This document shows positions 5,995 through 48,200 of a stretch of 64,000 nt of DNA, one piece after another (the first letter of the stretch is position 1; every line of letters starts with the position of its first letter). The translations under genes and the position numbers were made by a program. Origin of the DNA: a virus; the IMG/VR virus record IMGVR_UViG_3300040801_001593, positions 1 to 64,000 of that record, one strand, 5' to 3'. A model generated the notes under the pieces. That model saw only the letters and a program-made list of their open reading frames with translations. It was not told where the DNA came from and searched no databases.

Positions 5995-6618
5995 GTGGAA
6001 AGATGGGAAACTATCAAGAGTAATTGGCAGAATGGTAAGAGCATAGCATCAAAGCCTTGGGAAGAAGCAAACCCAAGGCTTTATAATATGATTAAGATGT
6101 GCAAGGTGCATTATTTATTGTTTCAGGATAATTACCGCCACTGGATAGAGAAGTCTAAACAATCTGGTACTCACATCTGTAGGTGCTGTAGGGGAAATAT
6201 ACCACCTCTTAATTGGCTTGGTAAGATTATGATTCCTCACCAAGCTCCTTTAAAAGATAGAGGGTTGGCTGTTGTTGATTATAAAGCACCTGTTTGCTTG
6301 AAGTGCCTCATTGAGCTTAAGAAAGAGCCTGTTCTTGAAACACCAGTTGGTTCTACTTTGACTGTAAGGAAAGAACTAATTAGAGAGCCAATTCAGAAAT
6401 GTGATATTAATAATAAACTCTTATGGTTTATACAAGAGAATAAAATGGTCAACTTTGAAAGACAAGTTAGAAAGGATTTGAAAAATGAGCTATGCAAACA
6501 TAAGTCACCCAACAAGGTTGACAATAAGCAATCTGACTGTAACAGAGGGGCTAAGAAGCTCAATAAAAAACAGATTGAGAGGATTTCCAAAACTTTGCGC
6601 AAAAGACGTTTTCTATGA
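5995..6618 (+). CDS. hypothetical Cys-rich (zinc-finger-like) protein
   Basis: GTG start 4 nt after AGGAGA. Contains HICRCCRGN ... CLKC. The 3' end overlaps the next gene by 134 nt. Confidence 0.55.
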   Translation: MERWETIKSNWQNGKSIASKPWEEANPRLYNMIKMCKVHYLLFQDNYRHWIEKSKQSGTHICRCCRGNIPPLNWLGKIMIPHQAPLKDRGLAVVDYKAPVCLKCLIELKKEPVLETPVGSTLTVRKELIREPIQKCDINNKLLWFIQENKMVNFERQVRKDLKNELCKHKSPNKVDNKQSDCNRGAKKLNKKQIERISKTLRKRRFL

Positions 6619-7129
6619 GTTGTGTTTTGCCATATGTAGCCCTCAGATAAAGTTTGAAACTAATAAGTATGCAAACTGGAAGCTAAGAGAGTTTGATTTT
6701 TTCTCTAAGGGTTTGACCCTAAACCAGTTGATAGAAATACTTAAAAGCTCAGGTATGAGATTCCACTCTAACAAAGCAAAGCAACTTTTCTTAGCAAGAT
6801 TAGATTTTGCTGAAATATATGACGCGGTAAAGTGTAGCACTTGCTCTGATATCAAAAAGAGAGAATGCTTGGTAAGGAATGTAAAGGGATTAGGGATGAA
6901 GACATCTTCCCACTTTCTAAGGAATATTGGAGATACTGACAACTTAGCAATCATAGATACCCACATAGCCAAGTTTCTGAAATCAGATTTGCCAAAGAAT
7001 AAGAAACAGTATATTGCTATGGAAACAGAGTTTCGTCAATTTGCTGTTAGAAACTTATTGACTGTTAGAGAGTTAGATGCTTTCATATGGGCTTACTATT
7101 CTAATAATGGCTTAGAATACGTAAGGTGA
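6485..7129 (+). CDS. ogg: 8-oxoguanine DNA glycosylase/AP lyase, Ogg2 (archaeal-type HhH-GPD) family
   Basis: FYELCFAICSPQ and VRNVKGLGMKTSSHFLRNIG...AIIDTHI match my recollection of the Ogg2 pattern (FxELxFCILTAN; G-x-G-x-K-x-ASHFLRN-x-G ... AIIDRHI). The catalytic Lys and Asp positions are present. The start is uncertain (6485 or downstream). Confidence 0.75.
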   Translation: MSYANISHPTRLTISNLTVTEGLRSSIKNRLRGFPKLCAKDVFYELCFAICSPQIKFETNKYANWKLREFDFFSKGLTLNQLIEILKSSGMRFHSNKAKQLFLARLDFAEIYDAVKCSTCSDIKKRECLVRNVKGLGMKTSSHFLRNIGDTDNLAIIDTHIAKFLKSDLPKNKKQYIAMETEFRQFAVRNLLTVRELDAFIWAYYSNNGLEYVR

Positions 7130-7169
7130 CAGCTATTCCCTTTAGTATATTAAAAATAAAGGAAGAGGG

Positions 7170-7265
7170 ATGAAACTGTTTTGGATACTTTTAGCTTTGG
7201 TTGTATCCACTATCATTTATAACTTAATAGTTATAGTAATATCTTTTAAAGGACTGTTTTTGTGA
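7170..7265 (+). CDS. small hydrophobic peptide (31 aa)
   Basis: GGAAGAGGG RBS. MKLFWILLALVVSTIIYNLIVIVISFKGLFL is a single transmembrane helix. Its stop overlaps the GTG start of the next gene. Confidence 0.45.
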   Translation: MKLFWILLALVVSTIIYNLIVIVISFKGLFL

Positions 7266-7954
7266 AAAGAGTGATGATAACTAAACCAATACCAAACAAG
7301 GCTTATGTTGAGGTTGGTGGAATATATAGAGTAATCAAAAGGCAAGGTTCATTATGGGTAAGGTCTTTGAACCGTCAATTGGTTATGATTAAAAAAGGAG
7401 AATTTGTATATGTTGAAGGAGGAAAGATGAAATTATCAGAGTTGGCAAGGTGCATTAAATATTTAGAGGTTCTTCACTTAAAGATGCTTCTGCCAGATTT
7501 TAAAAGTAGAAGCAAAGCAAGCCCTCCAATAGAAAGTTTTCTTGTTAATGAATTTCCATTTGGCTCTGCTTTCTGCTATGTGTTCAGAGGTAAGTGGACA
7601 AAGAAAAAGATTGATGGGTGTAGAACTTGCTTCTGTCCAAGGAAGCCTTTTGAACAGGATGACTGGAAAAGAGTTAGGAAGCCAAAAGATAAAAATAAGA
7701 GTATGCCTGAAGCAGAACACATATCTTGTAGAGTTCTTGCTACTGGTAAGATGAGAAGCATCAAAGACAGAATACAGGAAGTAGAAGAGATGTCCATAGA
7801 GACTATAATGAAATACATTAAAAAAGTCAAGTTAAGTAGAGAACAGCTCAGGCAACTCTCCCTACTCTGGCATTTTCATGTTTGGCAGCAATTAACTGTC
7901 AGCCATATTGATTCTAATAACCCGAATGAGTTTAAAAAGGGTTACCAACGCTAA
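7262..7954 (+). CDS. hypothetical basic protein
   Basis: GTG start. 230-aa ORF. The internal antisense and alternate-frame ORFs are judged spurious. Confidence 0.6.
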   Translation: MKRVMITKPIPNKAYVEVGGIYRVIKRQGSLWVRSLNRQLVMIKKGEFVYVEGGKMKLSELARCIKYLEVLHLKMLLPDFKSRSKASPPIESFLVNEFPFGSAFCYVFRGKWTKKKIDGCRTCFCPRKPFEQDDWKRVRKPKDKNKSMPEAEHISCRVLATGKMRSIKDRIQEVEEMSIETIMKYIKKVKLSREQLRQLSLLWHFHVWQQLTVSHIDSNNPNEFKKGYQR

Positions 7955-8070
7955 AATCCTTTTATTAACATGTGAATAAGGGTATATTTTATATAAATAA
8001 GGGGTTTTTATAGCCTAAAACTTTTCAAGGCTTAAAATAGCCTTAAAACGCTTTTAAAAGGATGGCTTAA

Positions 8071-8529
8071 ATGATTGCTAAATTGGCAAAATATTTAGAG
8101 TATTTGAAGATAGCTTCTGTTTTGATAGGATTTATCCGGTCAATTGGATTTAGTTTTAAGATGTTTGTTAAAAAGGAGCAATCTAAAACAAGGATTCTCT
8201 ATTATAGAGATTCCAAGGGCAGAGTCAACTATAAGACTCTCATAATAGAAGATGGAGTCACCTACAAGATGCATGTCTTTAACAGTAAAAAGGTTAAGTC
8301 CAAAGATTTATTAAAAGTAGAGCTGTTCTGCTTCCTAAGGACAGATTTTAGACTGGGCAGTGGTGAAGAGGTTTGCCTTAAACTTTATAAAGGAAGACCT
8401 GCTGGTGCTTGGTATATGGTAATGTATACTGAAAGAGGTGAAGAATTAGAGTTTCAAGAGTTAGGATTGATTACTATGAATCAAGCCAGAAACCATTATG
8501 GTAAGTTCCTTAAGGAAGTTGCACTATAA
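8071..8529 (+). CDS. hypothetical protein with N-terminal hydrophobic segment
   Basis: AAAGGA RBS. 152 aa. Confidence 0.6.
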   Translation: MIAKLAKYLEYLKIASVLIGFIRSIGFSFKMFVKKEQSKTRILYYRDSKGRVNYKTLIIEDGVTYKMHVFNSKKVKSKDLLKVELFCFLRTDFRLGSGEEVCLKLYKGRPAGAWYMVMYTERGEELEFQELGLITMNQARNHYGKFLKEVAL

Positions 8530-8568
8530 ATATTTAACGGTGAACTTTTTATTTATAGCTGAAAACTA

Positions 8569-8604
8569 AAAATTTTTATATATTATTAGTATAAGATTAA
8601 TTTA
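8569..8604 (+). promoter_or_regulatory. reiterated AT-rich promoter/operator element, copy C
   Basis: AAAATTTTTATATATTATTAGTATAAGATTAATTTA, upstream of the ATG at 8633. Confidence 0.4.
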
Positions 8605-8632
8605 CTTACTAATTTAAAAAAAAGGAGCTTTT

Positions 8633-8926
8633 ATGGAAGCTAAGGATATTCAATTAGAAGCAGTATCTGATTACCTCAATAAGAGGAGTAAAGGTTGCAA
8701 AGAAGTCCACTGGTGCAACTCTTATGCTTACCTTAAAGTAGAAGTTGAAAAGACAACTACTTATTCTATTAAAGATGTTAGGATTATGAAGATTTGCCAG
8801 CCAGAATTTTTAAATAGTTGTTTCTTCTTTAATGTAGCAGTACCTCTTCCTTGGTATGGTGATGCTGAAGAGTTTGAAGCCTTGCTATTGGAACTTGTTG
8901 AAGATTGGGGTGGATATGACATATGA
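8633..8926 (+). CDS. hypothetical protein
   Basis: AAGGAG RBS. 97 aa. Confidence 0.65.
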   Translation: MEAKDIQLEAVSDYLNKRSKGCKEVHWCNSYAYLKVEVEKTTTYSIKDVRIMKICQPEFLNSCFFFNVAVPLPWYGDAEEFEALLLELVEDWGGYDI

Positions 8927-9077
8927 TAAATATAGAGTTGATTTTGGAGATACCAGACCTTGGGGATCACAAACTCAAATATTTACTGAAAAGGGTTGGG
9001 TAATTGTAGACAGCCTAAAGGAAGCTGATGAGGAAATTGAGAGAATGATAAAAGAAGGAGTTATGGAACATGATTAG
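8916..9077 (+). CDS. hypothetical protein (53 aa; internal ATG of track ORF 8856..9077)
   Basis: ATG at 8916 overlaps the preceding stop by 11 nt. The upstream part of the track ORF lies inside the previous gene. Confidence 0.45.
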   Translation: MTYDKYRVDFGDTRPWGSQTQIFTEKGWVIVDSLKEADEEIERMIKEGVMEHD

Positions 9078-19370: not shown

Positions 19371-19676
19371 CTAAATGCTGTTTAAGATTCTATAAGTATG
19401 AGAAATGCTAACATTAAAGGCTTTAGATATGTCTGCAACCTTTGTGCCATTATTGCTCATGTCAAGCATCTTTCTATTGCGGTCTGGATTATTTGCTCTG
19501 GAGCTTAGAACTTTTAACTGCTTCCTTCTTAAATTAATGGCTTGGCGAGTTACACCATATTGGTCAGCAATTCCTTGGTCTGTTTTAAAAACTTTGACCA
19601 AGTCCATCATCTCTTCTCTGCCAATGTTTGCTACTGCACCTCTGTTTCTTGGTTTTTTAATTTCCACTTGTTTCAT
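19371..19676 (-). CDS. helix-turn-helix DNA-binding protein
   Basis: Two HTH-like segments: GIADQYGVTRQAINLRRKQL and TKVADISKAFNVSISHTYRIL. 101 aa. Confidence 0.55.
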   Translation of the reverse strand: MKQVEIKKPRNRGAVANIGREEMMDLVKVFKTDQGIADQYGVTRQAINLRRKQLKVLSSRANNPDRNRKMLDMSNNGTKVADISKAFNVSISHTYRILNSI

Positions 19677-20270: not shown

Positions 20271-20422
20271 AATAAGACAGTGGCTCTTTATACTATCTTA
20301 TAGCTTCTAATAATAAACTCTATACCTTAAAAATCGTTAGAATAACACCTTGATAAGGGCTTAAACTAACCTTATACTACTATCCGGTAGTATAAATATA
20401 AATAAGCCCTTAAAAGGCTTTA

Positions 20423-20956
20423 TTAGCGCCTGAACCTTCTATTGAGCCTTCTTCTATTGATGCCATAATTTTTAGAAGGTGGAGGAGGTGCTGTTTTACT
20501 TATGGACTGTATGTTCTCAGGAACAGCATGCTCAATAACAGGCTCCTTACTTTTGAAATCTATATTAGCTATATATAAGGTAAAAGTTACACAGCCAACA
20601 TATGTTGAGAACTCAGCAACAGAACCTTGACCAAAAATTTCTACAACCTTACTTTTAATCAATTCAATATAATCAGCATTATAATAAATGCTATTAGGAG
20701 AGCAACCTAAGAACTTTCTATCAGCATTGTTATGAAAATCTCTATGATAATGATTCAAGTAAGGGTCATCAGAGCAATCAAGAATCAACCTACATCTTAT
20801 AGTTACAAGGGCATCCATACCTTCAGAGAATTCAACCTTTTCAAAATTAACCCTTATATACTTAGTGCGGATAGCTAATTTAAAATCAGCCATCCGCTTT
20901 TTTAAGTCTTTTCTTGATTTAATTAAGTCTGCTTCTTTATCAAAATTAAATCCCAT
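20423..20956 (-). CDS. hypothetical protein with Arg-rich C-terminus
   Basis: AAGGA RBS. 177 aa. Last gene of the leftward operon. Confidence 0.65.
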   Translation of the reverse strand: MGFNFDKEADLIKSRKDLKKRMADFKLAIRTKYIRVNFEKVEFSEGMDALVTIRCRLILDCSDDPYLNHYHRDFHNNADRKFLGCSPNSIYYNADYIELIKSKVVEIFGQGSVAEFSTYVGCVTFTLYIANIDFKSKEPVIEHAVPENIQSISKTAPPPPSKNYGINRRRLNRRFRR

Positions 20957-20959
20957 TTA

Positions 20960-21346
20960 TCATTCCTTAACTTTTTTAAGCCGGACTCCTCTTCTGGACT
21001 GAGCAAATTGCCGAGTCTTCAAAGCTTGTTTGCACTTTTTGCAACCAACAGGAGGTTTGGCTTTATTCTCTTCTTCTGATTCTTCCTCAGTTTCTTCAAC
21101 ACCAAGTTCACCACTTTCTGATTCAGAGTATCTTGGTGAAAAAGATGAACCTCCATCTCCAATATTAGGATACTCATCACTTCCACTTACATCAAATGCA
21201 GAAGGAACTTCATTAGAAATCTGAGGTACTTCTTTTTCTACATGTGTAGAGACTTTATCTCTTTCTTGCCTTCTGACAATATGAGCTTTGCGCTCTTTAT
21301 CCCTGAAAGCTTGAACCTGCTTTTGTGTTCTTTGATTCTTACCCAT
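20960..21346 (-). CDS. hypothetical basic-acidic-basic protein
   Basis: 128 aa. Starts 1 nt after the patatin stop. Confidence 0.6.
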   Translation of the reverse strand: MGKNQRTQKQVQAFRDKERKAHIVRRQERDKVSTHVEKEVPQISNEVPSAFDVSGSDEYPNIGDGGSSFSPRYSESESGELGVEETEEESEEENKAKPPVGCKKCKQALKTRQFAQSRRGVRLKKVKE

Positions 21347-21347
21347 A

Positions 21348-22295
21348 TTAGAAACCTTCCTTTAAAAGTTTAATCATATCAGGATTTACCTTTGTCACTA
21401 ATTTTTCTCCATAATCCAAGTATTCCTTAATGTGTTTAACACCATCAAGCTTGTCAAGCTTATTAGGTAGCTCAACATTAAGTCTAAATACCCTTACATT
21501 AGGATTCATTTGGTCTACATAATAGCCAGATAGCACTTGGTCTTGGGTAGCTTCTGCTCTTGCTTGACCTAAGTAAGACCCAATCTGTCTAATAGTTCTC
21601 ATTTTTCTGGCTTTGGAAATAGGGTTGTATTGATTAACATCTCCACAACCAATAGAGACAATTACTACCTTTTCATCTTTCCATTTTGCCAGAACCTCCA
21701 TAAGACTATTTTCAAGAGTACAACTATTAATACCTTGACCACCATCTTGGAACACTGCTCCTACCTTTTGACCAATACTGCCAGAAGGAGAAAAGTTCTT
21801 CCATCTGAAATTAGGTACAACCATCTTTCCAAAATATAGAACTGCACTCAATGCAGACCAAGCAATAACATCAATCAGTTTTTCACCACCATCTTTAACG
21901 TCATAACTTTTCAAGAAGTGAGTTCTCATAGAACAAAGGTTGAAAGTAGTAAGAATCATATTAGTCTTGGCATCTCTATACCTAAAGTCTTTAGGTATAT
22001 AGTCCTCCATAGTTTCAAGAAACTTATCCCTATCATACTTAACACCATGTCTAAGAAAATAGAAAGGGTTGAACTTGAATAATTTAGGAAGATGTTCAAG
22101 GTATAGCTCTTGAATATAAGCTGCACTTATACCATAACCAAGACAACCTCCAATTATAGCACCAGTAGAAGTTCCTGAGATGAGGTCAAATGTTTCATGA
22201 CTTTTCTCTCCAAGAGTTTCTTCTATGTACCTTAATACAGTTGCAGGGATTACTCCCTTACATCCGCCACCATCAATTTGAAGAATTTTTTTCAT
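21348..22295 (-). CDS. patatin-like phospholipase
   Basis: DGGGCKGV (oxyanion hole GGxKG), GTSTG (GxSxG nucleophile) and FQDGGQG (catalytic Asp, DGG) occur in canonical order. Confidence 0.85.
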   Translation of the reverse strand: MKKILQIDGGGCKGVIPATVLRYIEETLGEKSHETFDLISGTSTGAIIGGCLGYGISAAYIQELYLEHLPKLFKFNPFYFLRHGVKYDRDKFLETMEDYIPKDFRYRDAKTNMILTTFNLCSMRTHFLKSYDVKDGGEKLIDVIAWSALSAVLYFGKMVVPNFRWKNFSPSGSIGQKVGAVFQDGGQGINSCTLENSLMEVLAKWKDEKVVIVSIGCGDVNQYNPISKARKMRTIRQIGSYLGQARAEATQDQVLSGYYVDQMNPNVRVFRLNVELPNKLDKLDGVKHIKEYLDYGEKLVTKVNPDMIKLLKEGF

Positions 22296-22984
22296 TTGTT
22301 TAATCCCGCTTGGAATTTAAAGATATTGCTGGAGATTTTACAAAGCTCCATATCAATCAAATTTACATAAATAGGGTCTTTCTTATAGACTTCCCACCTT
22401 TTGAATAAATCCATTTGGTGAGCATCTTTCTTAAACCTTTTACCATCAAATGAGCTTCCTCCACCTCTTTCAGATAAGACCTTAACACCTTTGTGATAAG
22501 TATCTAAACAAAGTAGAGAAGCCACTGAACCCCTATAATCCTCAGAAGTAACCCAATCATTATACTTGATAGCAAGTACATTAGGGTTAACATTCTCAAA
22601 GAGCTTGGCTTGTTTTTTATAAAGCTCAATTCTTTTATTAATCCTTTTGAACATACCACCCCCACACTTCATAGAAGAAGCTATCCAGTTGAATGGGTCT
22701 CTAAGGACTACTGCCATATGAACCTCATCATAATCATTCCATATAGTAAGTTTCCTAACTTTCCCAACATTATCCACATTAAAGTCTTCCATGTTATAAA
22801 TGTGAACATCAGCCTTTCCATTGCCAAACTTGACTGGTTTAGTTTTATGGGCTGGTATAAAATCAGAACCATGTACCTTATAATCATTAAAGTGGATAGC
22901 AGGCTCTGAATTATATCCTATCCAATGTACTATGGCATGATGTCCACTTCTTTTCATACCAAAGATAATATATGCTTTTTTCAT
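22292..22984 (-). CDS. sulfotransferase-fold (P-loop) protein
   Basis: ATG at 22984 (MKKAYIIFGMKRSGHH). GMKRSGHH resembles the 5'-PSB loop and VLRDPFNWIASS resembles the RDP-x5-S 3'-PB motif of sulfotransferases. Overlaps the patatin start by 4 nt. Confidence 0.5.
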   Translation of the reverse strand: MKKAYIIFGMKRSGHHAIVHWIGYNSEPAIHFNDYKVHGSDFIPAHKTKPVKFGNGKADVHIYNMEDFNVDNVGKVRKLTIWNDYDEVHMAVVLRDPFNWIASSMKCGGGMFKRINKRIELYKKQAKLFENVNPNVLAIKYNDWVTSEDYRGSVASLLCLDTYHKGVKVLSERGGGSSFDGKRFKKDAHQMDLFKRWEVYKKDPIYVNLIDMELCKISSNIFKFQAGLNK

Positions 22985-22988
22985 TAGT

Positions 22989-23633
22989 TTACCTACCTTG
23001 AATATTGAACACAGATAAGGTATGCTTTTCATTGTGTACTATATGGCTTTTACAATTGCCATTAGTATGGATACCTGCTTCTGATAATAGAGTCATATAG
23101 TCTAAAGTAGACCTTGAAATAACATGAGGCTTTTTATCTCCTGCATCCTTCTCATAGAAACACAGTCTCTTAAGCCCAAGTAGATTATCTTTAAAACTTT
23201 TCAGTATCTTGATAACAAGCTCATCATCACAATGCTGTAGAACAGTAGTTGTCAAAACTTGCTCAATGTCAAATTTATACCTGATATTAAAAGTTTCAAC
23301 CTCTGTAAGATAAGGGTGGCTAAGGTGAACAAATCTTTTACCTTTGTTTCTTTTTCTTGCCAACTTAATAAGTTCTTTTGTCATATCAGCACCAACATAC
23401 TTAGAGAACTGCTGAGCATACCTACCTATACCGCAACCATAGTCAAGAGTTGGTAGGTAGGTATCTAAGTTTTTGAAAATGAAATTTGTTCTGATGTTGT
23501 AATTAATATCCTGTTCTTCAATAGCCCTACAATCAAACCCAACAGCACTCTCTTGGTGGGTCTTTGCTCTATCCTCCCAATAGGATTTGGCTTGGTCTTC
23601 ATTTAGCATCCTTAACAGCCTTTCTACCGCCAT
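22989..23633 (-). CDS. class I SAM-dependent methyltransferase
   Basis: Motif I LDYGCGIGRY, followed by acidic post-I and motif II-like segments. 214 aa. The start could instead be the internal MLNEDQ. Confidence 0.7.
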   Translation of the reverse strand: MAVERLLRMLNEDQAKSYWEDRAKTHQESAVGFDCRAIEEQDINYNIRTNFIFKNLDTYLPTLDYGCGIGRYAQQFSKYVGADMTKELIKLARKRNKGKRFVHLSHPYLTEVETFNIRYKFDIEQVLTTTVLQHCDDELVIKILKSFKDNLLGLKRLCFYEKDAGDKKPHVISRSTLDYMTLLSEAGIHTNGNCKSHIVHNEKHTLSVFNIQGR

Positions 23634-23943
23634 GGTTATAATTATGGTTGTATGCTTTTATTAAAGGGGCACAATTTTTACAAGTGCCATTCTTCTCAGT
23701 AGCTTCTTCCTTACCACAATGCCAACACATACCTGACTCTCTCAGAGAGAAGTTTCTAAATTTCATAGAGAGTTGTGCATTAGTAAAGTCTTCAAATATC
23801 CCATGTTTATCAACTTCTCTGAACTTAGCCCAATCAACACTAACTTTCTCAGCTTTCTTAGTTAGGTTCATGAAAAGTTTTTTGACACTTTCTTTTCTGA
23901 AAGTAACATCAACCTTTTTACCTTTAACCATTTTAATTGGCAT
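23599..23943 (-). CDS. hypothetical zinc-ribbon protein
   Basis: ATG at 23943 follows GGAAGGAG. CWHCG...CKNC. Confidence 0.55.
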   Translation of the reverse strand: MPIKMVKGKKVDVTFRKESVKKLFMNLTKKAEKVSVDWAKFREVDKHGIFEDFTNAQLSMKFRNFSLRESGMCWHCGKEEATEKNGTCKNCAPLIKAYNHNYNHGGRKAVKDAK

Positions 23944-24154
23944 CTTTAACTCCTTCCATAGCTGCAACTGCAGCATCTAATCTTCTTACAGTGACATCAG
24001 CTGAATCTACAGTAGTATCATTTACCCAAATTGCAAACCCAGTAAGTTTAGGGCTTTTAGGGCTTACATAGAACCGCCCTTGATTGGAAACATTAATACT
24101 CTCTAACCCTACATTAGCATGCTCACCTTTAAAAACTTCACCAACATCTATCAC
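23933..24154 (-). CDS. hypothetical protein (73 aa)
   Basis: GTG start 6 nt after AAAGGAG. Confidence 0.5.
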   Translation of the reverse strand: MIDVGEVFKGEHANVGLESINVSNQGRFYVSPKSPKLTGFAIWVNDTTVDSADVTVRRLDAAVAAMEGVKDAN

Positions 24155-24194
24155 AAATAGCTCCTTTAGTTATTATTTTAAGTTTCTAATAACT

Positions 24195-24223
24195 AATATA
24201 ATAAAATTTTTAATCGTTCGCTT
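24195..24223 (-). promoter_or_regulatory. weak member of the ACGATTAAA promoter family (leftward)
   Basis: The minus strand reads AAGCGA-ACGATTAAAAATTTTAT-TATATT, the same register as the promoter at 16370. Confidence 0.35.
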
Positions 24224-25184
24224 AATAAATCTTTAACAATGGTGAATTATAGAGGGATGGAGTCTCATACACCCTGCAAAGTTTATTCCAACCATCTCTA
24301 TTAGGTTCCACAACTGTAGAGTATTCATATTCTAAGTCCTCTACAAGTCTAACTACCTTCCAGTTAAGAATCATAAGCTTAATATAATCAAAAAGCTTTT
24401 TGACATCTTTGTGGTCTTCACCTCTACGCTTAATCATTAGCCTTAAAAAACCTTCAGGTGTTCCATCACAATCAAGGTAGCAATCTAAGTTCTTCTTGAA
24501 CTGGAAGCGATAGACAGACTTGACATTATCTCCTGAATCACCTCTAATAACTTTGTGCAACATTACCTTACTTTTGTCAGTAGTATCAAAATGCTTCTCT
24601 ACAACTTCATCAGTAGGAGGATTGCCATCTCCAAGTATGATAGTTAGATTTGGATATCTGGGAATCAGTTGCCACATATCCTTATCAGTTGAGAATAGAA
24701 ATATTTTACTATTCTGGTTTTTCTTGATGTAAGAAGCTATTACATCATCTGCTTCTTCTCCATCATGCCAAATAGAAGTGTGAGGAATATGTGCCATAAA
24801 ATCTTTGCAGATTTGCATAGGGTCATACCCAAGGTCTTCTTTCTCTCGGTTCCCTTTGTAGCGAATCCGTTCTTTTTCATTTTCTCCATCCCAACTCTTA
24901 TCAGGGGAGTGACTTGCAAGAGCTTCTTGATTATCTTCATAGAGTTTTCTTTTGCGAGTAGGAGACCTATCCTCACAAATGATAAGTTCAGGTATACTTC
25001 CACTCTCTGAGCAAAGGTTGATAGCCCTCTGCAACATCTTACATAGACCAAGTATACATCCTACATTAATCCCATCAGTGTTAATAGTTCCTTCATCCAT
25101 AGTTGCAAATAAACTTCTGTATACAGCATTAGAGAAATCTATCACAACTTTGGTACTGGTTATTTCTTTCATTCTTCTTTTCAC
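24222..25184 (-). CDS. 5'-3' exonuclease / flap endonuclease (Pol I 5'-nuclease, T5 D15-like)
   Basis: VVIDFSNAVYRSLFA, YKGNREK, EEADDVIASY, STDKDMWQL and VIRGDSGDNV match the conserved blocks of the 5'-nuclease family. GTG at 25184 lies 9 nt after AAGGAGGG; ATG at 25172 is an alternative start. Confidence 0.85.
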   Translation of the reverse strand: MKRRMKEITSTKVVIDFSNAVYRSLFATMDEGTINTDGINVGCILGLCKMLQRAINLCSESGSIPELIICEDRSPTRKRKLYEDNQEALASHSPDKSWDGENEKERIRYKGNREKEDLGYDPMQICKDFMAHIPHTSIWHDGEEADDVIASYIKKNQNSKIFLFSTDKDMWQLIPRYPNLTIILGDGNPPTDEVVEKHFDTTDKSKVMLHKVIRGDSGDNVKSVYRFQFKKNLDCYLDCDGTPEGFLRLMIKRRGEDHKDVKKLFDYIKLMILNWKVVRLVEDLEYEYSTVVEPNRDGWNKLCRVYETPSLYNSPLLKIY

Positions 25185-25522
25185 AGGTATCTTCCCTCCT
25201 TCGGGTTTAATATAATAAATTTTTAACTTGCTAAAAAGCTTTTTATTAAAATAAATTAAACAAAATAGAACAAACACTAATTATTCTGTTGTAAAAGTTT
25301 TATATTATTACTCAAAGTAGGGATAATTTTAACGGTGGGAAATACGGTTCCTATATAAAAAAATTTAATCGTACCCCCCCCTCTTAGTAGCGGTCAATGG
25401 CATTTAGTCTTAAAAGGTGGCTTATATAATAAATATATATTTATATAATAAATATATATATAATATAGGGCAGGTTGGAAGGGTAAACGGCAGAAGCCGT
25501 TCATCAATGAAAAAGGGATGGC

Positions 25523-32632: not shown

Positions 32633-32714
32633 GAGGAAACTGTAAGATTTGTAAACTCACCCAAAACAACTTATGTTGCATTAAACTATTAATTAACCTG
32701 TGAATGAGGTATTT

Positions 32715-33698
32715 ATGAAACTCAAATCTATGAATGATATTAAAAGCCTTTTACAAAAGGCTGTCCGTATTGGTGCAGGTCAGACAAACAATGTGGCTAA
32801 TCCATTTTTGCCTGAACCACTTGCAGCAACTTTTATTGACATTGTTACAGAGTACAACAATTTCCGCAAAATCTTCCGTTCTATGAAAATGAATAGTGCT
32901 ACACGTACTATTCCTAAACTTCTAACTGGAACTGAAGTGTATTACCAACCTTATGAAGCAACTGCAGGAGAAGAAACTAACTTCACAGCAAGTAGCATTC
33001 AACTGGTTGCTAAGAAACTTTTCTCTTGGTTAGAAATTTCAGAAGAAACCTTTGAAGATGGTATTGTTGACATGCGTACTATGATTCGTATGCTTTTCGC
33101 TCGTGGTATGGGTATCTCTGAAGAGAAAGCATTCCTTACTGGTGATGTTGATTATCCTAATACTACTGCTGTTAAAGCTAATGCTACCGATACTGTTTGG
33201 TTCAATAAAGATGCAAGACTTGCATTTGATGGACTTCTAACTATAGGTCGTGAATCTGGAACTCGTCAGACTGTAAATGGTGCTGCAACTGTAGATGTAT
33301 TTGGTGAAGCAATTTACCGTATGGGTCTATATGCAAAACGTATGGGAGACCTTGTGTCTTTTGTCAATCCTTGGTCTGCTAACCAGTTGCTAAGAGATGA
33401 CACTCTTCTTACTGTTGACAAGTATGGTAGTAAAGCTACTATTCTATCTGGTGAGATTGGTAAAATCTTTGGTAAATGGACTATAATCAACAGTGATTAT
33501 ATTCCTGCTGGAGAAGCTGTTTCTACAGTAAGAGATAATGTTATTCTTGGTGACCGTAGAATGGTTAAATTCCAAGAAGACTTGGCTATCAAAAATGACA
33601 GCCAGATTTGGGCAATATCTGAACGTGTTGCCATGGAAGTTGAATATGACGAAGCTGTGCTTTATATGCATGGTCTTCAAAAACCTTCTGCTTCATAA
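32715..33698 (+). CDS. major capsid protein (HK97-fold by position and size)
   Basis: ATG at 32715 follows TGAGG. About 327 aa. Follows the protease and scaffold genes and is followed by a strong terminator. Confidence 0.7.
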   Translation: MKLKSMNDIKSLLQKAVRIGAGQTNNVANPFLPEPLAATFIDIVTEYNNFRKIFRSMKMNSATRTIPKLLTGTEVYYQPYEATAGEETNFTASSIQLVAKKLFSWLEISEETFEDGIVDMRTMIRMLFARGMGISEEKAFLTGDVDYPNTTAVKANATDTVWFNKDARLAFDGLLTIGRESGTRQTVNGAATVDVFGEAIYRMGLYAKRMGDLVSFVNPWSANQLLRDDTLLTVDKYGSKATILSGEIGKIFGKWTIINSDYIPAGEAVSTVRDNVILGDRRMVKFQEDLAIKNDSQIWAISERVAMEVEYDEAVLYMHGLQKPSAS

Positions 33699-33824: not shown

Positions 33825-36146
33825 ATGTTACCAGAAACCAGCCAAAATCGCAACTTAAGGAAAAGAGGACTTTCTACAAGGCAAGCAAAGAGAAGAAGTG
33901 ACAACTTAATTAAACACCAAACAGAGAAGAGTCCTGAGCAAGGAGATATTCTTTGCAAATTTGGTAAAGACTCTAAAGTAGTAAGAGGAAATTCCGGCTT
34001 CTCTATTGACATTAGTGATGTTGATGCAAATGATGTTGGAGCAATAGAGATTGCTCAGGCTTGGGAAGTTGCACGTGGTCCAATGGTTAAATTCCTAAAG
34101 AATGGAACTCAACAAGTAATAGCTCCTACCAGAAAAGCTAGACCTAAAATGATTCATTTTGGTCTTTGGATGAATAATGTAAGCCATTACTCTGGAGGAA
34201 GAGTTCACTTGATGCTTATGGCTTATAACCTTGCTGCAATGGGGCACAAAGTTACAATAGTAACTGACAGGCTTCCTAAATTCCTTGATGACCTTAAATA
34301 CATTGAAGTAGAAGATAGAATTGAGTTTGTTGAAGGGGAGAAGTGTTTAGAAACCAATTGGCTCATGAAATCTACTATGAACAATATTGATGTGGTAATT
34401 GCTACTCCTAGAATATATGAAGCCTTTCACTATGCTAAGAAATGGGGATGTACATGTTATGCATTTCTACTTGAAACTCCTAACTATGTATCTCAATTTA
34501 GAGGTGGTCAGGATTCTACAGAAGTTTACTGGAAAGACTACAAACAGCTTATAATGCAGACTGCTGATTTTGTGCTTTGCAACCCTGGTCCAACCATTGA
34601 AGGGGCAAAAGAATGGCTAAAGGATTTTAGAGGTAAGTTCTTTGAAATGCCTCCTGCTATAAATACTGAAGCAGCAGATAAAGTAGAATGTGAGGAAGAG
34701 AATGAAGTTTGTTTTGTAGGGAGACACCTTGATTTCAAATGCCCTGATGATGTAGTATTTGCTATAAGTAAAATACCAGAAGGGATAAGACCAGTAATAA
34801 ACTATATAGGTTCTCACAATGATAGGGTAAGGAAAAGAATACTGGATAAGGCTAGACCTTTAAAGGTAGGGGTGAGATTTTATGCTGGTGTTGACGATTA
34901 CGAAAAGTTCCTTCTTATAAAGCGCTCAAAATTAATGATTATCCCTACTAAGTTTGAAGGCTTTGGTATGCCTCCTGCTGAAGCAATATATTGTAACACT
35001 ACGGTAGTGTGCTATGAGCTACCTATTACCCGTCACATCTACGGAGACTCTGTGCAGTATGTGAAATCAGGGGATACTAATGCATTAGGTAAGAAAGTAA
35101 GGGAGCTAATAGAAAACCCTGAGAAACGGCTTAAAATAGCTGAGGAAGCTCGCAAAAACATGTTTAACCCTAAAAGTAACAATCCTTGTCTACCTTATAA
35201 GATTAAAAACATATGTAGGGATGCTTTTTATGGTAAAAGTGAAGAGCTTAAGATGACTGCTGGAATTATTGTTCTTAATGGTGCTGATGTAGTAAGGTTA
35301 GCAATTGAGTCTGTATATGATTCTATGGAGCACATAATTGTGGTAGAAGGAATTGTTGAGCACTATGCAAAGCAGAATCCTACTCACCATAATATGGGAC
35401 ATTCTATTGACAAGACATTAGAAGTTATAAGCCAAATTGATGACCCTCTGGGTAAAATTGAGGTAGTCACTATTGAAGATGCTTTCCCTAACAGAGAGAA
35501 GCCTTTCTGGAAGAATAAGAATGAAATGCAGAATGAGATTGCTAAAAGAGTGAACACTCCTTTATACCTTAAAGTTGATTCTGATGAGATATGGAAAGAG
35601 TCAGACATTGAGTATGTCAAAAGAGTATTTCTCAATGACCCTAAATTAACTACTATGTATATGAGAAGATGGCACTTTTGGAAGAATCTTGAAACAGTTG
35701 CTGTTGGCGGTCAATGGGATTGTGCTGAGGCTCGTGCTTGGAGATGGGAAAAAGGTTTCCATCATAATATGGAAGATAAGAAAGGCTTCAACTATTTAGT
35801 AGATAGCCAAGGTAAGAGAGTTGCTGACCCTCAATATAAGAGTATTCAAATAATGGAGAGACTTCACTACCATTTAGGATACTGCCGGAAAGAAGAGCAT
35901 ATTCAAGGTAAGATTAGATACTATGCAAATAGAGGAATTGAGCAGAATGTTAAGGATAATTACACTGATTGGAAAGAGGGTCAACCTACCAATTCCACTC
36001 ACCCTTCTGGAACAACTGCTATACCATTCAAAGGTAAACTTCCTTTTATACTTCACAGTAGCTATCACAAGAAGTTAGAACAGAACCCTAAAGAATGTGT
36101 TCAAAATAATGATGGCATGCTAAATGCACGTGGAAAGGATGATTAA
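33825..36146 (+). CDS. two-domain glycosyltransferase (GT-B/GT4-like plus GT-A/GT2-like)
   Basis: The N-terminal half has SGGRVH..LA..GHKVTIVTD and the EX7E motif FEGFGMPPAEAIY. The C-terminal half has TAGIIVLNGADVV... and a DxD-like VDSDEIW. Confidence 0.7.
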   Translation: MLPETSQNRNLRKRGLSTRQAKRRSDNLIKHQTEKSPEQGDILCKFGKDSKVVRGNSGFSIDISDVDANDVGAIEIAQAWEVARGPMVKFLKNGTQQVIAPTRKARPKMIHFGLWMNNVSHYSGGRVHLMLMAYNLAAMGHKVTIVTDRLPKFLDDLKYIEVEDRIEFVEGEKCLETNWLMKSTMNNIDVVIATPRIYEAFHYAKKWGCTCYAFLLETPNYVSQFRGGQDSTEVYWKDYKQLIMQTADFVLCNPGPTIEGAKEWLKDFRGKFFEMPPAINTEAADKVECEEENEVCFVGRHLDFKCPDDVVFAISKIPEGIRPVINYIGSHNDRVRKRILDKARPLKVGVRFYAGVDDYEKFLLIKRSKLMIIPTKFEGFGMPPAEAIYCNTTVVCYELPITRHIYGDSVQYVKSGDTNALGKKVRELIENPEKRLKIAEEARKNMFNPKSNNPCLPYKIKNICRDAFYGKSEELKMTAGIIVLNGADVVRLAIESVYDSMEHIIVVEGIVEHYAKQNPTHHNMGHSIDKTLEVISQIDDPLGKIEVVTIEDAFPNREKPFWKNKNEMQNEIAKRVNTPLYLKVDSDEIWKESDIEYVKRVFLNDPKLTTMYMRRWHFWKNLETVAVGGQWDCAEARAWRWEKGFHHNMEDKKGFNYLVDSQGKRVADPQYKSIQIMERLHYHLGYCRKEEHIQGKIRYYANRGIEQNVKDNYTDWKEGQPTNSTHPSGTTAIPFKGKLPFILHSSYHKKLEQNPKECVQNNDGMLNARGKDD

Positions 36147-44574: not shown

Positions 44575-45215
44575 AGGAGAATAAGCGTGCAGATGTTCCC
44601 AAGTATAGCAAAAATTACTATTCTGATGTTATTGACCTTTTTGCAAAAAGGTATGGCTGGACTATTGATTATATACTTGGGCTTACTCGCAAGCAAATTA
44701 GACTTCTTATGGTTAGTGCTGGTGACCATGAACGGATGCCAGAACGTGAGGGTTCTCAGGAAAATGAATATAATCCTACTGATGAGGAACGTGATGCGGT
44801 TTTTGAAAAGGAACATCTTAGACAGATTAGAAAAGGTGTCAAGCTTAAGAAGAAATCTAAAGTGGTTGATAACATTATTGGTATGTCTATGGAAGAGTAT
44901 CAAAAATCTCTTGCACAGAGGTCAGGGAAAGCTCCTAATACTGGAAGCTCTGAGAAACAGCCTAATTCAGCTGTTAAGCAGAGGTATAGTAAAAGTAATA
45001 AGACTTTACCTAATAGGGCTGAAAACAGACCTCCTAGACCGGATGCACAGGATGTTAAGAGACCGCCCAAACCTAGTAAAGGGCTATTGATGAATAAACC
45101 TGTTGATATGAATGGTGATAATGATATGGCTAAAGTATTTAACCTAGCCAATCAAGGTAAAAATGGTTTTAAAATGTCCAATAAGCTTAGAAATAAATTA
45201 TTTCGGAGAAAATAA
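44137..45215 (+). CDS. tail assembly chaperone G-T fusion (via -1 frameshift at 44541-44547)
   Basis: The -1 frame continues as ..FFGRDEDSLPVEENKRADVPKYSKNYYSDVIDLFAKRYGWTIDYILGLTRKQIRLL.. and joins track ORF 44709..45215. Its stop overlaps the tape measure ATG (TAATG). Confidence 0.65.
44541..44547 (+). promoter_or_regulatory. -1 programmed ribosomal frameshift slippery heptamer T_TTT_TTG
   Basis: The zero frame reads GAT TTT TTG. I translated the -1 frame, and it is open from here to the stop at 45213-45215. Confidence 0.7.
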
Positions 45216-48200
45216 TGGCTCAGGAAATATTAGGGAGTGGTATATTTGAGATTGGCTTTAGGGGTAATGCTAATGATGTTAATAAATTTAGAGACAGCAT
45301 AAAGCAACTTTCCTCTCCAGCCAGTCAAGTAGCTTCTTCATTTAAGAATGTAAATACTGGTGTTCAAAACTTTAATGTGAACATAAGGCAAGCAGGTCAA
45401 GCCACCCAAGGCTTCTCAGCATCACTAGGGAATTTCTCTAAGGAGATGTTCTTTACTGCTACTGCTATTGGGGCAGTTAATGTTGCGCTTTTAGCTCTTA
45501 ATAGGAGTGTGGCAGAGACTGCTTTTGGGTTTGACCGTAACATGACTATGATTAAGGCAGTAACTAATGCCTCAGCATCAGAGTTTGAGAAACTTGGTGA
45601 AATTGCTCGTGATATGGGTCAACAAACTGAGTTTGGAGCAACCCAAGCAGCAGAAGGTTTATTGGTCCTTGCCCGTATGGGTCTAAGTGTTTCTGAAAGT
45701 ATGGAAGTATTAGAGCCTGCCATGAAGCTGGCACAATCTCAGCAATACTCAATGGCAGAGTCTACTGAATTAGTAATCTCTCAATTAAGAGTGTTTGGAG
45801 AATCTGTTGAGGCTTCATCTAAGTTTGCAAACGTACTTGCAGCAACATCATCTAAGTCTGCTGCAGATTTAGAGAAGTTGAACCTATCCCTTTCATATGT
45901 TGGTCCAGTTGCTAATGCTGCTGGAAGAAGTTTTGAAGAGGTTAATGCTACTTTAGGACTTATGTTCAATGCAGGTATTAGAGCAAGTAGAGCAGGTACT
46001 TCACTAAGGTTTGCTTTTGCTAACTTAATGAACCCAACAAAAAGAGTAGAGAAAACTATTAAGGCATTAGGTCTTACAGTTGATAGCTTAAACCCTAATG
46101 TCAATAGTATGAATGATATTTTTGTAACTTTGGCTAAAAGGTTAGAAGGTGTTCAAAATAAAGCAGCAATAATGTTTGAGCTTTTTGGGAAGCGTGCAGC
46201 TCCTGCTATGACTGCTGTGGTGAATGAGGTCACTAGGAATAATGATGCATTCCAAGATATGCAAGACTCTATTACTGGAACAAATGAGGTGCAAAGGCAG
46301 TTTGAAGAACAAACTAAATCATTCTCAGGTTCTGTAAAGTTATTAAGTTCAAGTTGGGAAGAAGTCTCTTTGCAATTAGGTGATACTTTGCTACCTACTA
46401 TGAGATTAGTTATTGACTCTCTTCAGAATTTGTCAGAATGGTTCAAGAACTCAGGTGAATCTAACAAGACCGCTATTGGGTTTCTTATCCAGACTGCAAC
46501 AGTAGCAACTACATTAGCTGCAGCATTTGCATCAACAGCTTGGGTAGTAGGTACTATTGCAAAGGCAATGAAAGGCTTAGCAGTTACATCAGGAGCATTA
46601 GGAGCTGCCCTTAAAGGCAACATAGCTACAGCTAGAGCAAATAAGATAGCAACTCAAGAGCAACTTATAGCAACTACTGCATTAGATGCAGCTTTACAAA
46701 AGAGTATTAGAACTGACCTAAGAAAGCAGATGTCTAAAATAGGTATTGCAAAGTCAAGTGCAAAATTGATAGCTAGTACCATGGCTGAAACAGTTGCCAC
46801 AAAGGCAAGTGGTAAAGAAAAGCTTACAGCTGCTATGTCCACTATAAAACTTACTGCTGCTCAATATGGTCTTACTGCTGCAGAACAAAAACAGTTGGTA
46901 GCTACTATTCAAAATGTTTCAGGTCAAAAATCATTCAAAGCTGCATTGGACGCATCCTCTGTTTCTGCAAAAGGTTTAGGAACTTCTTTGAAAGGACTAA
47001 CAGCAGCACTTGGTGGTCCAATTGGAATCATTACCACACTTGCTACTATAGCACTACCTGCTTTGATAAGTTCAGTTGTAAAACTTAAGGCAGAGGATGA
47101 AGAAGCAAGGAGACTTACTCTTCAAAGAGTGGAAGCTCTTAATTCATTAAAGAAAGGATTAGACTCTGTAAGGGATAGTATTAAGTCTTTAGAGTCTGAC
47201 CAAAAGAATGCTAATAAGAGTGCTGCAGAACAAGAAGCAATTGCTAAAAGGCTTGCCAATCTGAATGTCAAAGAAGCAGATAATATAAGAGAAATTGTTA
47301 AATTGATGCCAGAGTGGATTCAGGGTTATGATAAGGTAACTGGGCAGTTTGAGTTAAATGAAGAAGCTATGAGAAAGTATCTTGTTAAAAACCAAGAACT
47401 TTTAAAGGTAGAAGAAAAAGCTGCAAAGCAAAATTTTAGTAGCCGAGAAGAAGAGTTGAAGTTCTATGAGAAAGAATTAGAGAATATAAGAGAGAAGATT
47501 TCACTAACAAGTGAAACTTTGCAACAAGATAAGGAAGCTATTGGTAATACCAAGAGGAGACTAGAAGCAGAAAGAAAAATGGCTCAAACTCTTAGCACAA
47601 TTGTTACACCAGAAGGAGAAGACCCTAGTTCTGAGGCTATGATTCAAGCACAAGAAGATTTATCAAAGTATAATGATAAGATAGATGAAACTGGAGGCAA
47701 GTTAAGAAAATTAATAGATGCTCACCAATCTCTTTCAGAGAAGATTGAAAGGTTGGGAGGAGTTGCTGATAGTACTGGTGATGAGGTTATTAACTTAGGT
47801 CAAGATGGTTCAGATTCTGCCGATAAGTTTAGTGACAGCTTAGACAAATTAATCTTGAATCTTGAAAAGCTTAGACAGAAACTCTTAGATATTGAAAACC
47901 AAAGGAAAAGAGAAATTGATGTCCTTAATACTGCATCCCAATTTGATAGGGAGATGCTAAAGATAACTAATGCAGGGCTTAAAGAAAAGGAAGGGCTTCT
48001 TGCTAGTGTCCAAGAGAAAGAAAAGGAGCTTGCAGCTTTAAAGAAGGAACAAGCTCAAGGTGATAATTTAGTATCTGAAGAAGATATGGCAAAGGCAGAG
48101 AAAGCTCTTAAATCTGTACAAGACCAATATACAAAGACTGCCAGAGTTATAACTGAAAAATCTAAAATTATGGGAGGACAACTTAAGGAAAAGACCCTTA

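Follow-up and report, generated by a model that had tools for sequence, protein, structure and literature searches.

We analysed a 64-kb stretch of viral DNA, positions 1 to 64,000 of the IMG/VR record IMGVR_UViG_3300040801_001593 and in the following called the window, which is the genome of a novel tailed phage with a GC content of ~35% and a large terminase (TerL) being only ~28% identical to that of any deposited GenBank phage. Eight minus-strand open reading frames (ORFs) were confirmed between 25184 and 20423, and this block, for which a blastn search against GenBank phages returned no match, is a genuine operon transcribed divergently from the terminase genes. Among its products are a flap endonuclease (FEN), a class I S-adenosylmethionine (SAM)-dependent methyltransferase, a protein with a sulfotransferase fold and a patatin-like phospholipase. 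We favour, with moderate confidence, a model in which the methyltransferase and the sulfotransferase-like protein tailor a glycan made by the phage itself and the patatin acts separately, the operon being a mosaic and not the gene set of one pathway. The operon and its flanks contain the following features.

24222..25184, minus strand: 5'-3' exonuclease/flap endonuclease (FEN), first gene of the operon (Pfam 5_3_exonuc_N 3e-17; PHROG 107 exonuclease 5.5e-20)
23933..24154, minus strand: orf73, small protein with a GTG start and an AAAGGAG Shine-Dalgarno sequence
23599..23943, minus strand: Zn-ribbon protein of 114 aa with a CxxC...CxxC pattern, conserved core
22989..23609, minus strand: class I SAM-dependent methyltransferase of 206 aa (Methyltransf_11), conserved core
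22292..22984, minus strand: sulfotransferase-fold protein of 230 aa, accessory in the clade
21348..22295, minus strand: patatin-like phospholipase of 315 aa (Pfam Patatin), accessory cassette
20960..21346, minus strand: p128, charged protein with a C-terminal CxxC, weak homologues in the relatives L003 and L101
20423..20956, minus strand: p177, last gene of the operon, basic C-terminal tail, homologue only in L003 (38% identity)
20404..20420, minus strand: terminator-like hairpin directly 3' of p177, consisting of a 7-bp stem AAGCCTTTTAAGGGCTT followed by a T-rich tract ATTTATATTT; consensus match only
25185..25522, no strand assigned: AT-rich intergenic region separating the leftward operon from the divergently oriented packaging genes, which run rightward

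A sequence-only reading of this DNA had described eight packed leftward genes, and all of them are present at the positions it gave, with junctions being mostly overlaps or gaps of 1-4 nt; its identifications of the FEN, the class I methyltransferase, the sulfotransferase fold, the intact patatin and a glycosyltransferase starting at 33825 are likewise correct. Taken directly from the window sequence, the junctions comprise a gap of 67 nt between FEN and orf73, overlaps of 11 nt each between orf73 and the Zn-ribbon gene and between the latter and the methyltransferase gene, a gap of 4 nt between the methyltransferase and the sulfotransferase-like gene, an ATGA overlap of the sulfotransferase-like gene with the patatin gene, and gaps of 1 nt (patatin/p128) and 3 nt (p128/p177). 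The FEN gene starts with GTG at 25184, an AGGAGG Shine-Dalgarno sequence lying ahead of the start codon. For the Zn-ribbon protein the most likely start is the ATG at 23943 and not 23976, because the tblastn alignments from relatives begin there; the most likely methyltransferase start, 23609, agrees with the collection's own gene call P0184, as does the start of the sulfotransferase-like gene at 22984 with gene call P0001. Tight packing of genes is normal in phage operons and is no evidence of a shared pathway. The FEN is an ordinary replication/recombination nuclease having no chemical tie to the other genes of the operon.

Three of the small proteins, i.e. orf73, p128 and p177, show no family match in Pfam, PHROGs, NCBIfam or PADLOC, and the Zn-ribbon protein, which is conceivable as a Trm112-like activator, gives only sub-threshold matches to Zn-ribbon families of Pfam. 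One weak homologue of orf73 was found in the closest relative, L098 (4e-7), and ORFs of 71-75 aa occupy its position in L099, L101 and L105. The promoters are presumably located in the intergenic region 25185..25522, which contains several promoter-like minus-strand matches, no single one being significant. The same region harbours an AT-only 20-nt palindrome (arms 25425-25444 and 25448-25467, 90% complementary) and, within 25372-25467, also a run of ~10 G residues; palindrome and G-run together could constitute a regulatory or origin-like element. Downstream of the operon and on the same strand, the segment 19673-20199 encodes a 73-aa protein combining a transmembrane helix at its N-terminus with a DnaJ-type CxxCxGxG zinc finger as well as a 99-aa protein with a signal-peptide-like N-terminus, and a resolvase-type helix-turn-helix protein is encoded at 19371-19676.

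Relatives of the window were gathered by exact-protein look-ups of sulfotransferase homologues, by scanning IMG/VR with a profile of the sulfotransferase family and by a profile scan with the terminase, and the operon genes were mapped onto these relatives with phmmer and tblastn. Ten independent clade members, the window among them, cover the operon, their TerL proteins being 58-76% identical. FEN, Zn-ribbon protein and methyltransferase are encoded by all ten. The sulfotransferase-like gene is present in seven (window, L003, L004, L005, L100, L102 and L103) and missing from L098, L101 and L105, and p128 (3/10) and p177 (2/10) are restricted to the nearest relatives. A lipase gene occupies the slot right after the methyltransferase or the sulfotransferase-like gene in five members, or in six if the distant second patatin of L005 is counted, which shares 29% identity and lies 4.4 kb further down. 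In the window and in L098 the slot holds a patatin, the L098 orthologue directly following the methyltransferase gene without any sulfotransferase-like gene; in L004, L103 and L105 it holds a class-3 α/β-hydrolase lipase (Pfam 1e-27 and 1e-24). Both accessory genes occur together in four members, the sulfotransferase-like gene alone in three, the lipase alone in two and neither in one (L101). All four combinations being seen, the sulfotransferase-like gene and the lipase do not depend on each other, and the counts are as independent assortment predicts.

In neighbour-joining trees of TerL and FEN, the carriers of the class-3 lipase fall into one subclade and those of the window-type patatin (patatin-A) into its sister subclade, with the sulfotransferase-like gene found in both and lost at least three times. 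The operon is thus a mosaic, in which a conserved core of FEN, an optional small ORF, Zn-ribbon protein and methyltransferase is followed by a variable accessory slot. The sequence-only reading had joined nuclease, methyltransferase, sulfotransferase and patatin into a single coupled pathway and had named a lack of co-conservation in relatives as the observation that would speak against it; the ten clade members do not bear out this pathway, co-conservation being absent for the patatin and incomplete for the sulfotransferase-like gene (7/10). Three separate lipolytic lineages, patatin-A, patatin-B and class-3 lipase, have entered this operon within one small clade, two of them in the identical slot, where their translation is coupled to that of the methyltransferase or sulfotransferase-like gene. 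This recurrence suggests selection for a lipase in the hosts of these phages, and the repeated recruitment may reflect a host-specific need.

The sulfotransferase-like protein has no match in Pfam, PHROGs, NCBIfam or PADLOC, and a PDB sequence-profile search with its family gave no meaningful match either. We therefore turn to motifs and fold. Across 32 homologues, strand 1 is followed by the sequence G-M-K11-R12-S13-G14-H-H, in which R12, S13, G14 and H16 are invariant and K11 is found in at least 90%; E66 is invariant, as are R95, D96, N99, A102 and S103 of the stretch R95-D-P-F-N-W-I-A-S103, and the loop G174-G-G-S-S-F179. The GxxRSG and RDP-x5-S motifs pointed out from the sequence alone are hence real and conserved. 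Sulfotransferases bind 3'-phosphoadenosine 5'-phosphosulfate (PAPS) through a Lys-containing, PKxGTT-like 5'-phosphosulfate loop and an Arg...Ser 3'-phosphate motif. The first and the third motif of the window protein match, at the level of sequence, these 5'-phosphosulfate and 3'-phosphate binding motifs, and the Arg-to-Ser spacing of eight in R95...S103 is canonical for sulfotransferases.

An AlphaFold2 model built on the homologue alignment (predicted local distance difference test score, pLDDT, 90) was compared to the PDB using Foldseek, where ranks 1-16 are all sulfotransferases, i.e. TPST2 (E 1.9e-4, probability 1.0), TPST1, Teg12/14, StaL and SULTs, with nucleoside kinases appearing only from rank 18 (uridine-cytidine kinase). 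The Walker A motif GxxxxGK[ST] is absent from the protein, which has KRSG and RDP-x5-S instead. An ordinary nucleotide kinase, the outcome that would have undone the initial assignment, was rejected on these two grounds, the absence of Walker A and the ranking of sulfotransferases above kinases in the fold search. Sequence models of canonical sulfotransferases are approached by a few of the 32 family members only, with weak matches to Sulfotransfer_1 to _4 (one reaches Sulfotransfer_2 at 1.2e-5 and two reach Sulfotransfer_4 at 6e-4). Compared to the canonical enzymes (Sulfotransfer_1 to _4 and Stf0 families; TPST, StaL/Teg and SULTs), the window protein shares the fold and both PAPS motifs at canonical spacing, whereas it reaches no Pfam, NCBIfam or PDB sequence model and has its own invariant GGGSSF loop and an E66-D67 pair.

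A single-sequence scan of viral contigs with this protein found nothing, and a profile scan was needed to reveal its relatives. A profile search of 1.84 billion representative proteins returned 3,856 clusters at E<=1e-3 and 3,297 at E<=1e-10 (50%-identity clusters), and the sulfotransferase-like protein thus belongs to a large family without a Pfam model. Members are encoded on 59 IMG/VR contigs, jumbo phages and one contig of a giant-virus metagenome-assembled genome (L060) among them, and in 23 bacterial genomes including Planctomycetes, Okeania, Microcystis and Hyphomicrobium. Our literature search retrieved no characterised phage sulfotransferase.

The genomic context of the family points to the sulfate donor. 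On the 82-kb IMG/VR phage contig L018, the segment 9851-11233 encodes a 460-aa protein in which a sulfotransferase domain of this family (residues 51-274) is fused to an adenosine 5'-phosphosulfate (APS) kinase (residues 289-446, 42% identical to CysC), which implies that the family uses PAPS. In an Arenimonas locus (L097) the homologue is immediately preceded by an APS kinase gene, and on a 180-kb phage contig (L069) such a gene lies at a distance of 3.8 kb from the homologue. L003, the closest relative keeping the sulfotransferase-like gene (64% identity), has, 3 kb downstream and in the same orientation (6374-9042), genes for CysD (PAPS_reduct family match, 7e-49) and for CysN fused to CysC (GTP_EFTU and APS_kinase domains). 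These arrangements suggest PAPS being the donor of the sulfotransferase-like protein.

For the acceptor, domain fusions and neighbouring genes point to glycans. P0325 carries the sulfotransferase domain fused to tetratricopeptide repeats (TPR) and a region resembling GT41-type O-GlcNAc-transferase/SPINDLY (5e-127; GT, glycosyltransferase), P0250 combines TPR and GT4 domains with a C-terminal sulfotransferase domain, and in P0260 the domain is fused to a KpsC-like Kdo-transferase domain. Across 55 viral loci the immediate neighbours include methyltransferases (Methyltransf_24 in six cases, and others) and glycosyltransferases of the types GT2 (4), GT1 (3), GT7C (3), GT8 (2) and GT17, and further Caps_synth, UDP-GlcNAc 2-epimerase, UDP-galactopyranose mutase, GDP-mannose dehydratase and an Stf0 sulfotransferase. 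The bacterial homologues are neighboured by Sulfotransfer_3 (6), GT2 (4) and GT1/GT4 (3) proteins, methyltransferases and GDP-mannose dehydratase. Taken together, this context makes the sulfotransferase-like protein a candidate PAPS-dependent glycan sulfotransferase.

The methyltransferase exceeds the cut-off of Methyltransf_11 (24.6 versus 21.2 bits) and belongs to a small family of 19 clusters, in which motif I, LDYGCGIGR, and D75 are invariant. Its AlphaFold2 model (pLDDT 92) shows a Rossmann methyltransferase fold and gives 528 methyltransferase matches at E below 1e-3 in Foldseek. The fold and profile matches are generic and include ChlM, NTMT1, DhpI, NNMT, an anthraquinone O-methyltransferase, Trm9 and phosphoethanolamine N-methyltransferases; both Foldseek and the PDB profile search thus return generic class I small-molecule and protein enzymes and indicate no substrate. 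A DNA methyltransferase was rejected, as motif IV in the form (D/N/S)PP(Y/F) or PCQ is absent from the alignment, this position reading TVLQHCDD, which is of the small-molecule-methyltransferase type. A homologue with 39% identity (P0192) resides inside a glycan island of an unrelated 128-kb phage contig (L121, 3952-16511), in which the genes for Methyltransf_23/11, a canonical Sulfotransfer_2, RgpF, a double-GT2 protein, the methyltransferase homologue, a cupin, PhoH and a further GT2 follow each other. The sulfotransferase of this island is not of the family of the window protein, showing that methylation and sulfation beside glycosyltransferases recur in phages whose sulfotransferases are not homologous to each other. 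On L122, a second homologue of the methyltransferase has a weak GT9 match in its vicinity. We infer that the methyltransferase is a putative glycan O-methyltransferase.

A candidate source of the glycan lies within the head-gene module of the window, where two genes adjoin each other.

32700-33698: HK97-type major capsid gene, directly before the glycosyltransferase (Phage_capsid 6e-13)
33825..36146, plus strand: two-domain glycosyltransferase of 773 aa with a GT4 domain at residues ~110-480 (Glycos_transf_1 2.2e-19) and a C-terminal GT2-like domain with a DSDE motif

The GT2-like domain was recognised by inspection of the sequence and is preceded, beyond the GT4 domain, by a basic N-terminal region of ~100 aa. 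A PDB search with the protein returned generic GT4 enzymes only. The order of capsid gene followed by glycosyltransferase gene is kept in all six clade members covering the region, i.e. the window and five others. This glycosyltransferase is a candidate for the enzyme building the glycan on which methyltransferase and sulfotransferase-like protein would act.

The patatin matches Pfam Patatin (PF01734) at 2e-14 with 54.7 bits against a cut-off of 27.7. Its motifs G9-G10-G11-x-x-G14, G41-T-S43-T-G45 and D184-G-G are invariant in 14 homologues, confirming what had been read from the sequence, with the correction that the catalytic centre is not a triad but a Ser-Asp dyad plus an oxyanion loop. 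As the Ser43/Asp184 dyad and the oxyanion loop are invariant, the enzyme is probably catalytically active. No signal peptide is visible in its sequence. The closest homologues (44-52% identity) are bacterial and originate from Spirochaetota, Leptospira, Bacteroidota and Thioploca; the taxa Spirochaetota, Leptospira and Bacteroidota together with the GC content of ~35% give a hint at the host, which is suggestive only.

The sequence-only reading had likened the patatin to CapV, an effector of the cyclic-oligonucleotide-based antiphage signalling system (CBASS). The PADLOC phospholipase-effector model indeed matches over the full length (4.7e-37, residues 3-305), and the nearest solved structures are phospholipases activated by cyclic GMP-AMP (cGAMP), with 1e-14 and alignments covering the N-terminal catalytic half only. 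The NCBIfam model CBASS_lipase, however, scores 87.3 bits and does not reach its equivalog cut-off of 200. No cyclase is encoded within 5 kb on either side of the Leptospira, Spirochaetota and Thioploca homologues (44-48% identity), which are stand-alone genes, and the window patatin has no cGAS/DncV-like nucleotidyltransferase (CD-NTase) neighbour, its flanks being the sulfotransferase-like gene and p128. With the cut-off unmet and the cyclase context absent, a CBASS effector or decoy was rejected and the analogy to CapV did not hold: shared are the patatin fold, the GGG-x-x-G loop, the GxSxG serine and the DGG aspartate, whereas the window protein stays below the equivalog cut-off, has no cyclase partner and is borne by a phage and not by a defence island, as is CapV, which is activated by cGAMP. 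A lysis cassette was rejected as well, there being no endolysin or holin domain among the neighbouring genes.

In tblastn searches against GenBank phages the patatin gave weak matches only, to Wolbachia phage WO and one uncultured phage. A patatin with 45% identity is encoded in the replication module of an unrelated IMG/VR phage of 170 kb (L001:8001-8954). There it is flanked by primase and ThyX, a FEN gene follows 1.7 kb further downstream, and neither a methyltransferase nor a sulfotransferase is encoded in the vicinity, showing that phages took up this type of patatin more than once. A literature search yielded no characterised lytic-phage patatin. From these sequence comparisons the patatin appears as a cellular-type, independent accessory phospholipase that phages have acquired repeatedly, and not as a CBASS effector; its role might be membrane breakdown, lipid scavenging or a host-specific function, the evidence constraining these options weakly.

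The model we favour would bring these genes together as follows. The sulfotransferase-like protein would take sulfate from PAPS, supplied in this phage by the host, and pass it to a sugar hydroxyl, with the methyltransferase O-methylating the same glycan. This glycan would most likely be built by the two-domain glycosyltransferase whose gene directly follows the one for the major capsid protein, resulting in a decorated virion glycan comparable to those of mycobacteriophages and giant viruses, a glycan of the host surface being the main alternative acceptor. Separately, the patatin, a phospholipase A of the stand-alone bacterial type, would act on phospholipids of the host membrane and thereby aid membrane breakdown late in infection or release fatty acids. 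Of the hypotheses put forward from the sequence alone, glycan tailoring by methylation and sulfation is thus the best supported, for two of the eight genes, the evidence being the APS-kinase fusion, CysD and CysN/C, the fusions to and neighbourhood of glycosyltransferases, and the L121 island.

Several observations weigh against this model. The Foldseek template-modelling (TM) scores of the sulfotransferase-like protein are modest (0.4-0.55), and its best fold matches are protein-tyrosine sulfotransferases, which leaves room for a protein acceptor. The acceptor is deduced from the genomic context of family members that are distant (25-30% identity), and the sulfotransferase-like gene of the window adjoins no glycosyltransferase. 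Control genes at least seven positions off in the same viral loci still give ~9 glycosyltransferase and 2 methyltransferase matches, so that the adjacency-specific enrichment amounts to only ~2-fold for glycosyltransferases and ~4-fold for methyltransferases; this within-locus control indicates an association with glycan-rich regions and not with strict neighbours. The 64-kb window contains no PAPS-synthesis genes, the contig of 89.7 kb running 25.7 kb beyond it. The methyltransferase and sulfotransferase genes are ~10 kb away from the glycosyltransferase gene, on the opposite strand and in a presumably earlier operon, and as methyltransferase and glycosyltransferase are both core genes, their co-occurrence is uninformative. 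Finally, two unrelated lipolytic folds recur at one position in sister subclades, and the lipase could be functionally tied to the module.

The distance from the capsid-adjacent glycosyltransferase, together with the location of both genes in a non-structural leftward operon, would also fit enzymes that tailor an envelope glycan of the host, i.e. intermediates of O-antigen, capsule or exopolysaccharide at the cytoplasmic face, for example masking receptors against superinfection or altering the cell surface. In bacteria, polysaccharide clusters that also encode ABC exporters, GT9 heptosyltransferases and epimerases do contain members of the sulfotransferase family. However, both are soluble proteins whose sequences show neither a membrane nor an export signal, the virion module keeps its own two-domain glycosyltransferase in 6/6 clade members, and the loss of the sulfotransferase-like gene at least three times in a small clade is as compatible with a dispensable decoration as with exclusion. 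We consider a host-glycan target unlikely, though worth keeping in view.

The recurrence of a lipase in one slot bears on a further explanation, an integrated lipid or glycolipid pathway in which methyltransferase, sulfotransferase and lipase would share one membrane lipid as substrate, for example through methylation or sulfation of the head group combined with deacylation, thereby remodelling or breaching the envelope. Patatin and class-3 lipase, being unrelated in fold, share the slot in sister subclades, each translationally coupled to the gene ahead of it (methyltransferase or sulfotransferase-like), and the best PDB sequence matches of the methyltransferase profile are phosphoethanolamine N-methyltransferases (1e-8), mostly over the SAM-binding motif. 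The independent assortment of sulfotransferase-like gene and lipase (4, 3, 2, 1), with L101 lacking both, speaks against such a pathway, as do the absence of lipase enrichment beside sulfotransferase homologues outside the clade and the fusions of the family, which join it to glycosyltransferases and APS kinase and never to lipid enzymes. We regard it as rather improbable, and the sequence-only proposal of a lipid or envelope module survives only for the lipase acting alone, not as a joint undertaking of the three enzymes.

Direct modification of virion or host proteins without any glycan, by sulfation of Tyr (or Ser/Thr) residues and by methylation, would be in line with TPST1 and TPST2 heading the Foldseek list, with the protein N-terminal methyltransferases NTMT1/NRMT among the top matches of the methyltransferase, and with one family member being fused to a GT41-type protein O-glycosyltransferase. 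These structural matches are weak and generic (TM 0.4-0.6, 10-15% identity), and the context is dominated by sugar-nucleotide and polysaccharide genes, making a protein-directed function very improbable.

A nucleic-acid or nucleotide modification, with a kinase-like P-loop protein and a methyltransferase acting on DNA or RNA in keeping with the FEN, had also been proposed from the sequence. It could draw on the operon shared with the FEN, on the relatedness of the sulfotransferase fold to nucleotide kinases with uridine-cytidine kinase at rank 18 of the fold search, and on Trm9 and METTL6 among the methyltransferase matches; it found no support, as the protein has KRSG and RDP-x5-S and not Walker A, kinases are outranked by sulfotransferases in the fold search, the methyltransferase carries the small-molecule motif VLQHCDD and not the (D/N/S)PP(Y/F) or PCQ of DNA methyltransferases, and no hydroxymethylase or other hypermodification gene is present among the window ORFs scanned, leaving it with hardly any probability. 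Equally remote is the patatin being a captured CBASS-type effector that serves as a cyclic-nucleotide decoy or sponge or as a signal-triggered lysis or exclusion device, as the PADLOC match and the relation to cGAMP-activated phospholipases are countered by the score of 87 versus 200 bits, by PDB alignments spanning the N-terminal catalytic half only, by the stand-alone nearest homologues (44-48%) without CD-NTase neighbour and by an intact dyad that a sponge would not need.

Outside the operon and the capsid region, the window contains further genes. Its left arm encodes a RadC-like JAB domain protein (2418-2888, 6e-20) and an Ogg-type 8-oxoguanine DNA glycosylase (6485-7129, 4e-33). On the plus strand, the segment 14079-15218 encodes side by side two pentapeptide-repeat proteins (156 and 215 aa; Pfam Pentapeptide 1e-36 and 2e-70), which could be DNA mimics or anti-defence candidates. 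In the late region, 45215-58908 comprises two consecutive very large ORFs of 2,122 and 2,442 aa, presumably tail or fibre proteins.

The combination of enzymes has counterparts in several known systems. In rhizobia, Nod factors, which are secreted lipo-chitooligosaccharide signals, are tailored by the sulfotransferase NodH, by NodP/NodQ, which are paralogues of CysD and CysN/C, and by the methyltransferase NodS, all decorating an oligosaccharide. The genes described here would follow the same logic of a dedicated PAPS supply, a sulfotransferase of ~250 aa and a class I methyltransferase, which we understand as an analogy only. For the lipase, mycobacteriophage LysB and other lipolytic lysis enzymes of phages are serine esterases or lipases acting on envelope lipids of the host, LysB sitting in the lysis cassette beside the endolysin; an α/β-hydrolase lipase likewise fills the slot in sister relatives of the window, whereas no lysis gene was found near the window operon.

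Cluster O mycobacteriophages encode an O-methyltransferase (Corndog gp35) and glycosyltransferases (gp36-38) among their virion genes (PMC4351075), which is a hallmark of virion glycosylation in these phages, and mycobacteriophage glycosylation cassettes are reported to modify capsid and tail proteins (Freeman et al. 2023). As in the window, the phage glycosyltransferase of these cassettes is part of the head-gene module. In contrast, no sulfotransferase is described for them in these sources, and their methyltransferase adjoins the glycosyltransferases, whereas it is part of a divergent non-structural operon here; host and phage lineage are unrelated. The fibril-glycosylation clusters of Megavirinae (Moumouvirus australiensis, Cotonvirus) contain a predicted sulfotransferase, Ma461, and a bifunctional sulfate adenylyltransferase/APS kinase, Ma457, for which the authors propose sugar sulfation without experimental validation (PMC10117803). 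Common to both cases are a predicted viral sulfotransferase, PAPS-synthesis genes, glycosyltransferases and sugar methyltransferases. The Megavirinae are giant viruses of eukaryotes with compact glycan clusters, whereas the window represents a tailed phage in which sulfotransferase and methyltransferase are encoded apart from the glycosyltransferase and PAPS genes occur only in some relatives. Virus-encoded glycan tailoring is thus known as such; new are the unannotated sulfotransferase family and, in relatives of the window, PAPS-synthesis genes borne by tailed phages.

The patatin also holds a caution for the reading of phage genomes, as translational coupling in a phage operon does not equal a shared pathway, nor does a CapV-like score of a defence model equal a CBASS effector. 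As a tentative and rather doubtful generalisation, this clade and many other phages with the same sulfotransferase family might put methylated, sulfated glycans on their virions, made by a glycosyltransferase, a methyltransferase and a sulfotransferase of their own, some of them using PAPS genes of their own in the form of CysD/CysN/C or APS-kinase fusions. If true, these would be the first sulfated glycans on Caudoviricetes virions, and some phage PAPS-synthesis genes would serve the decoration of virions and not general sulfur metabolism. It would further provide a working annotation for a family of ~3,900 clusters overlooked by current domain libraries. Sulfation would then join glycosylation and methylation in the surface chemistry of phage particles, with possible effects on adsorption, immune recognition, binding to mucus or exopolysaccharide, and phage therapy.

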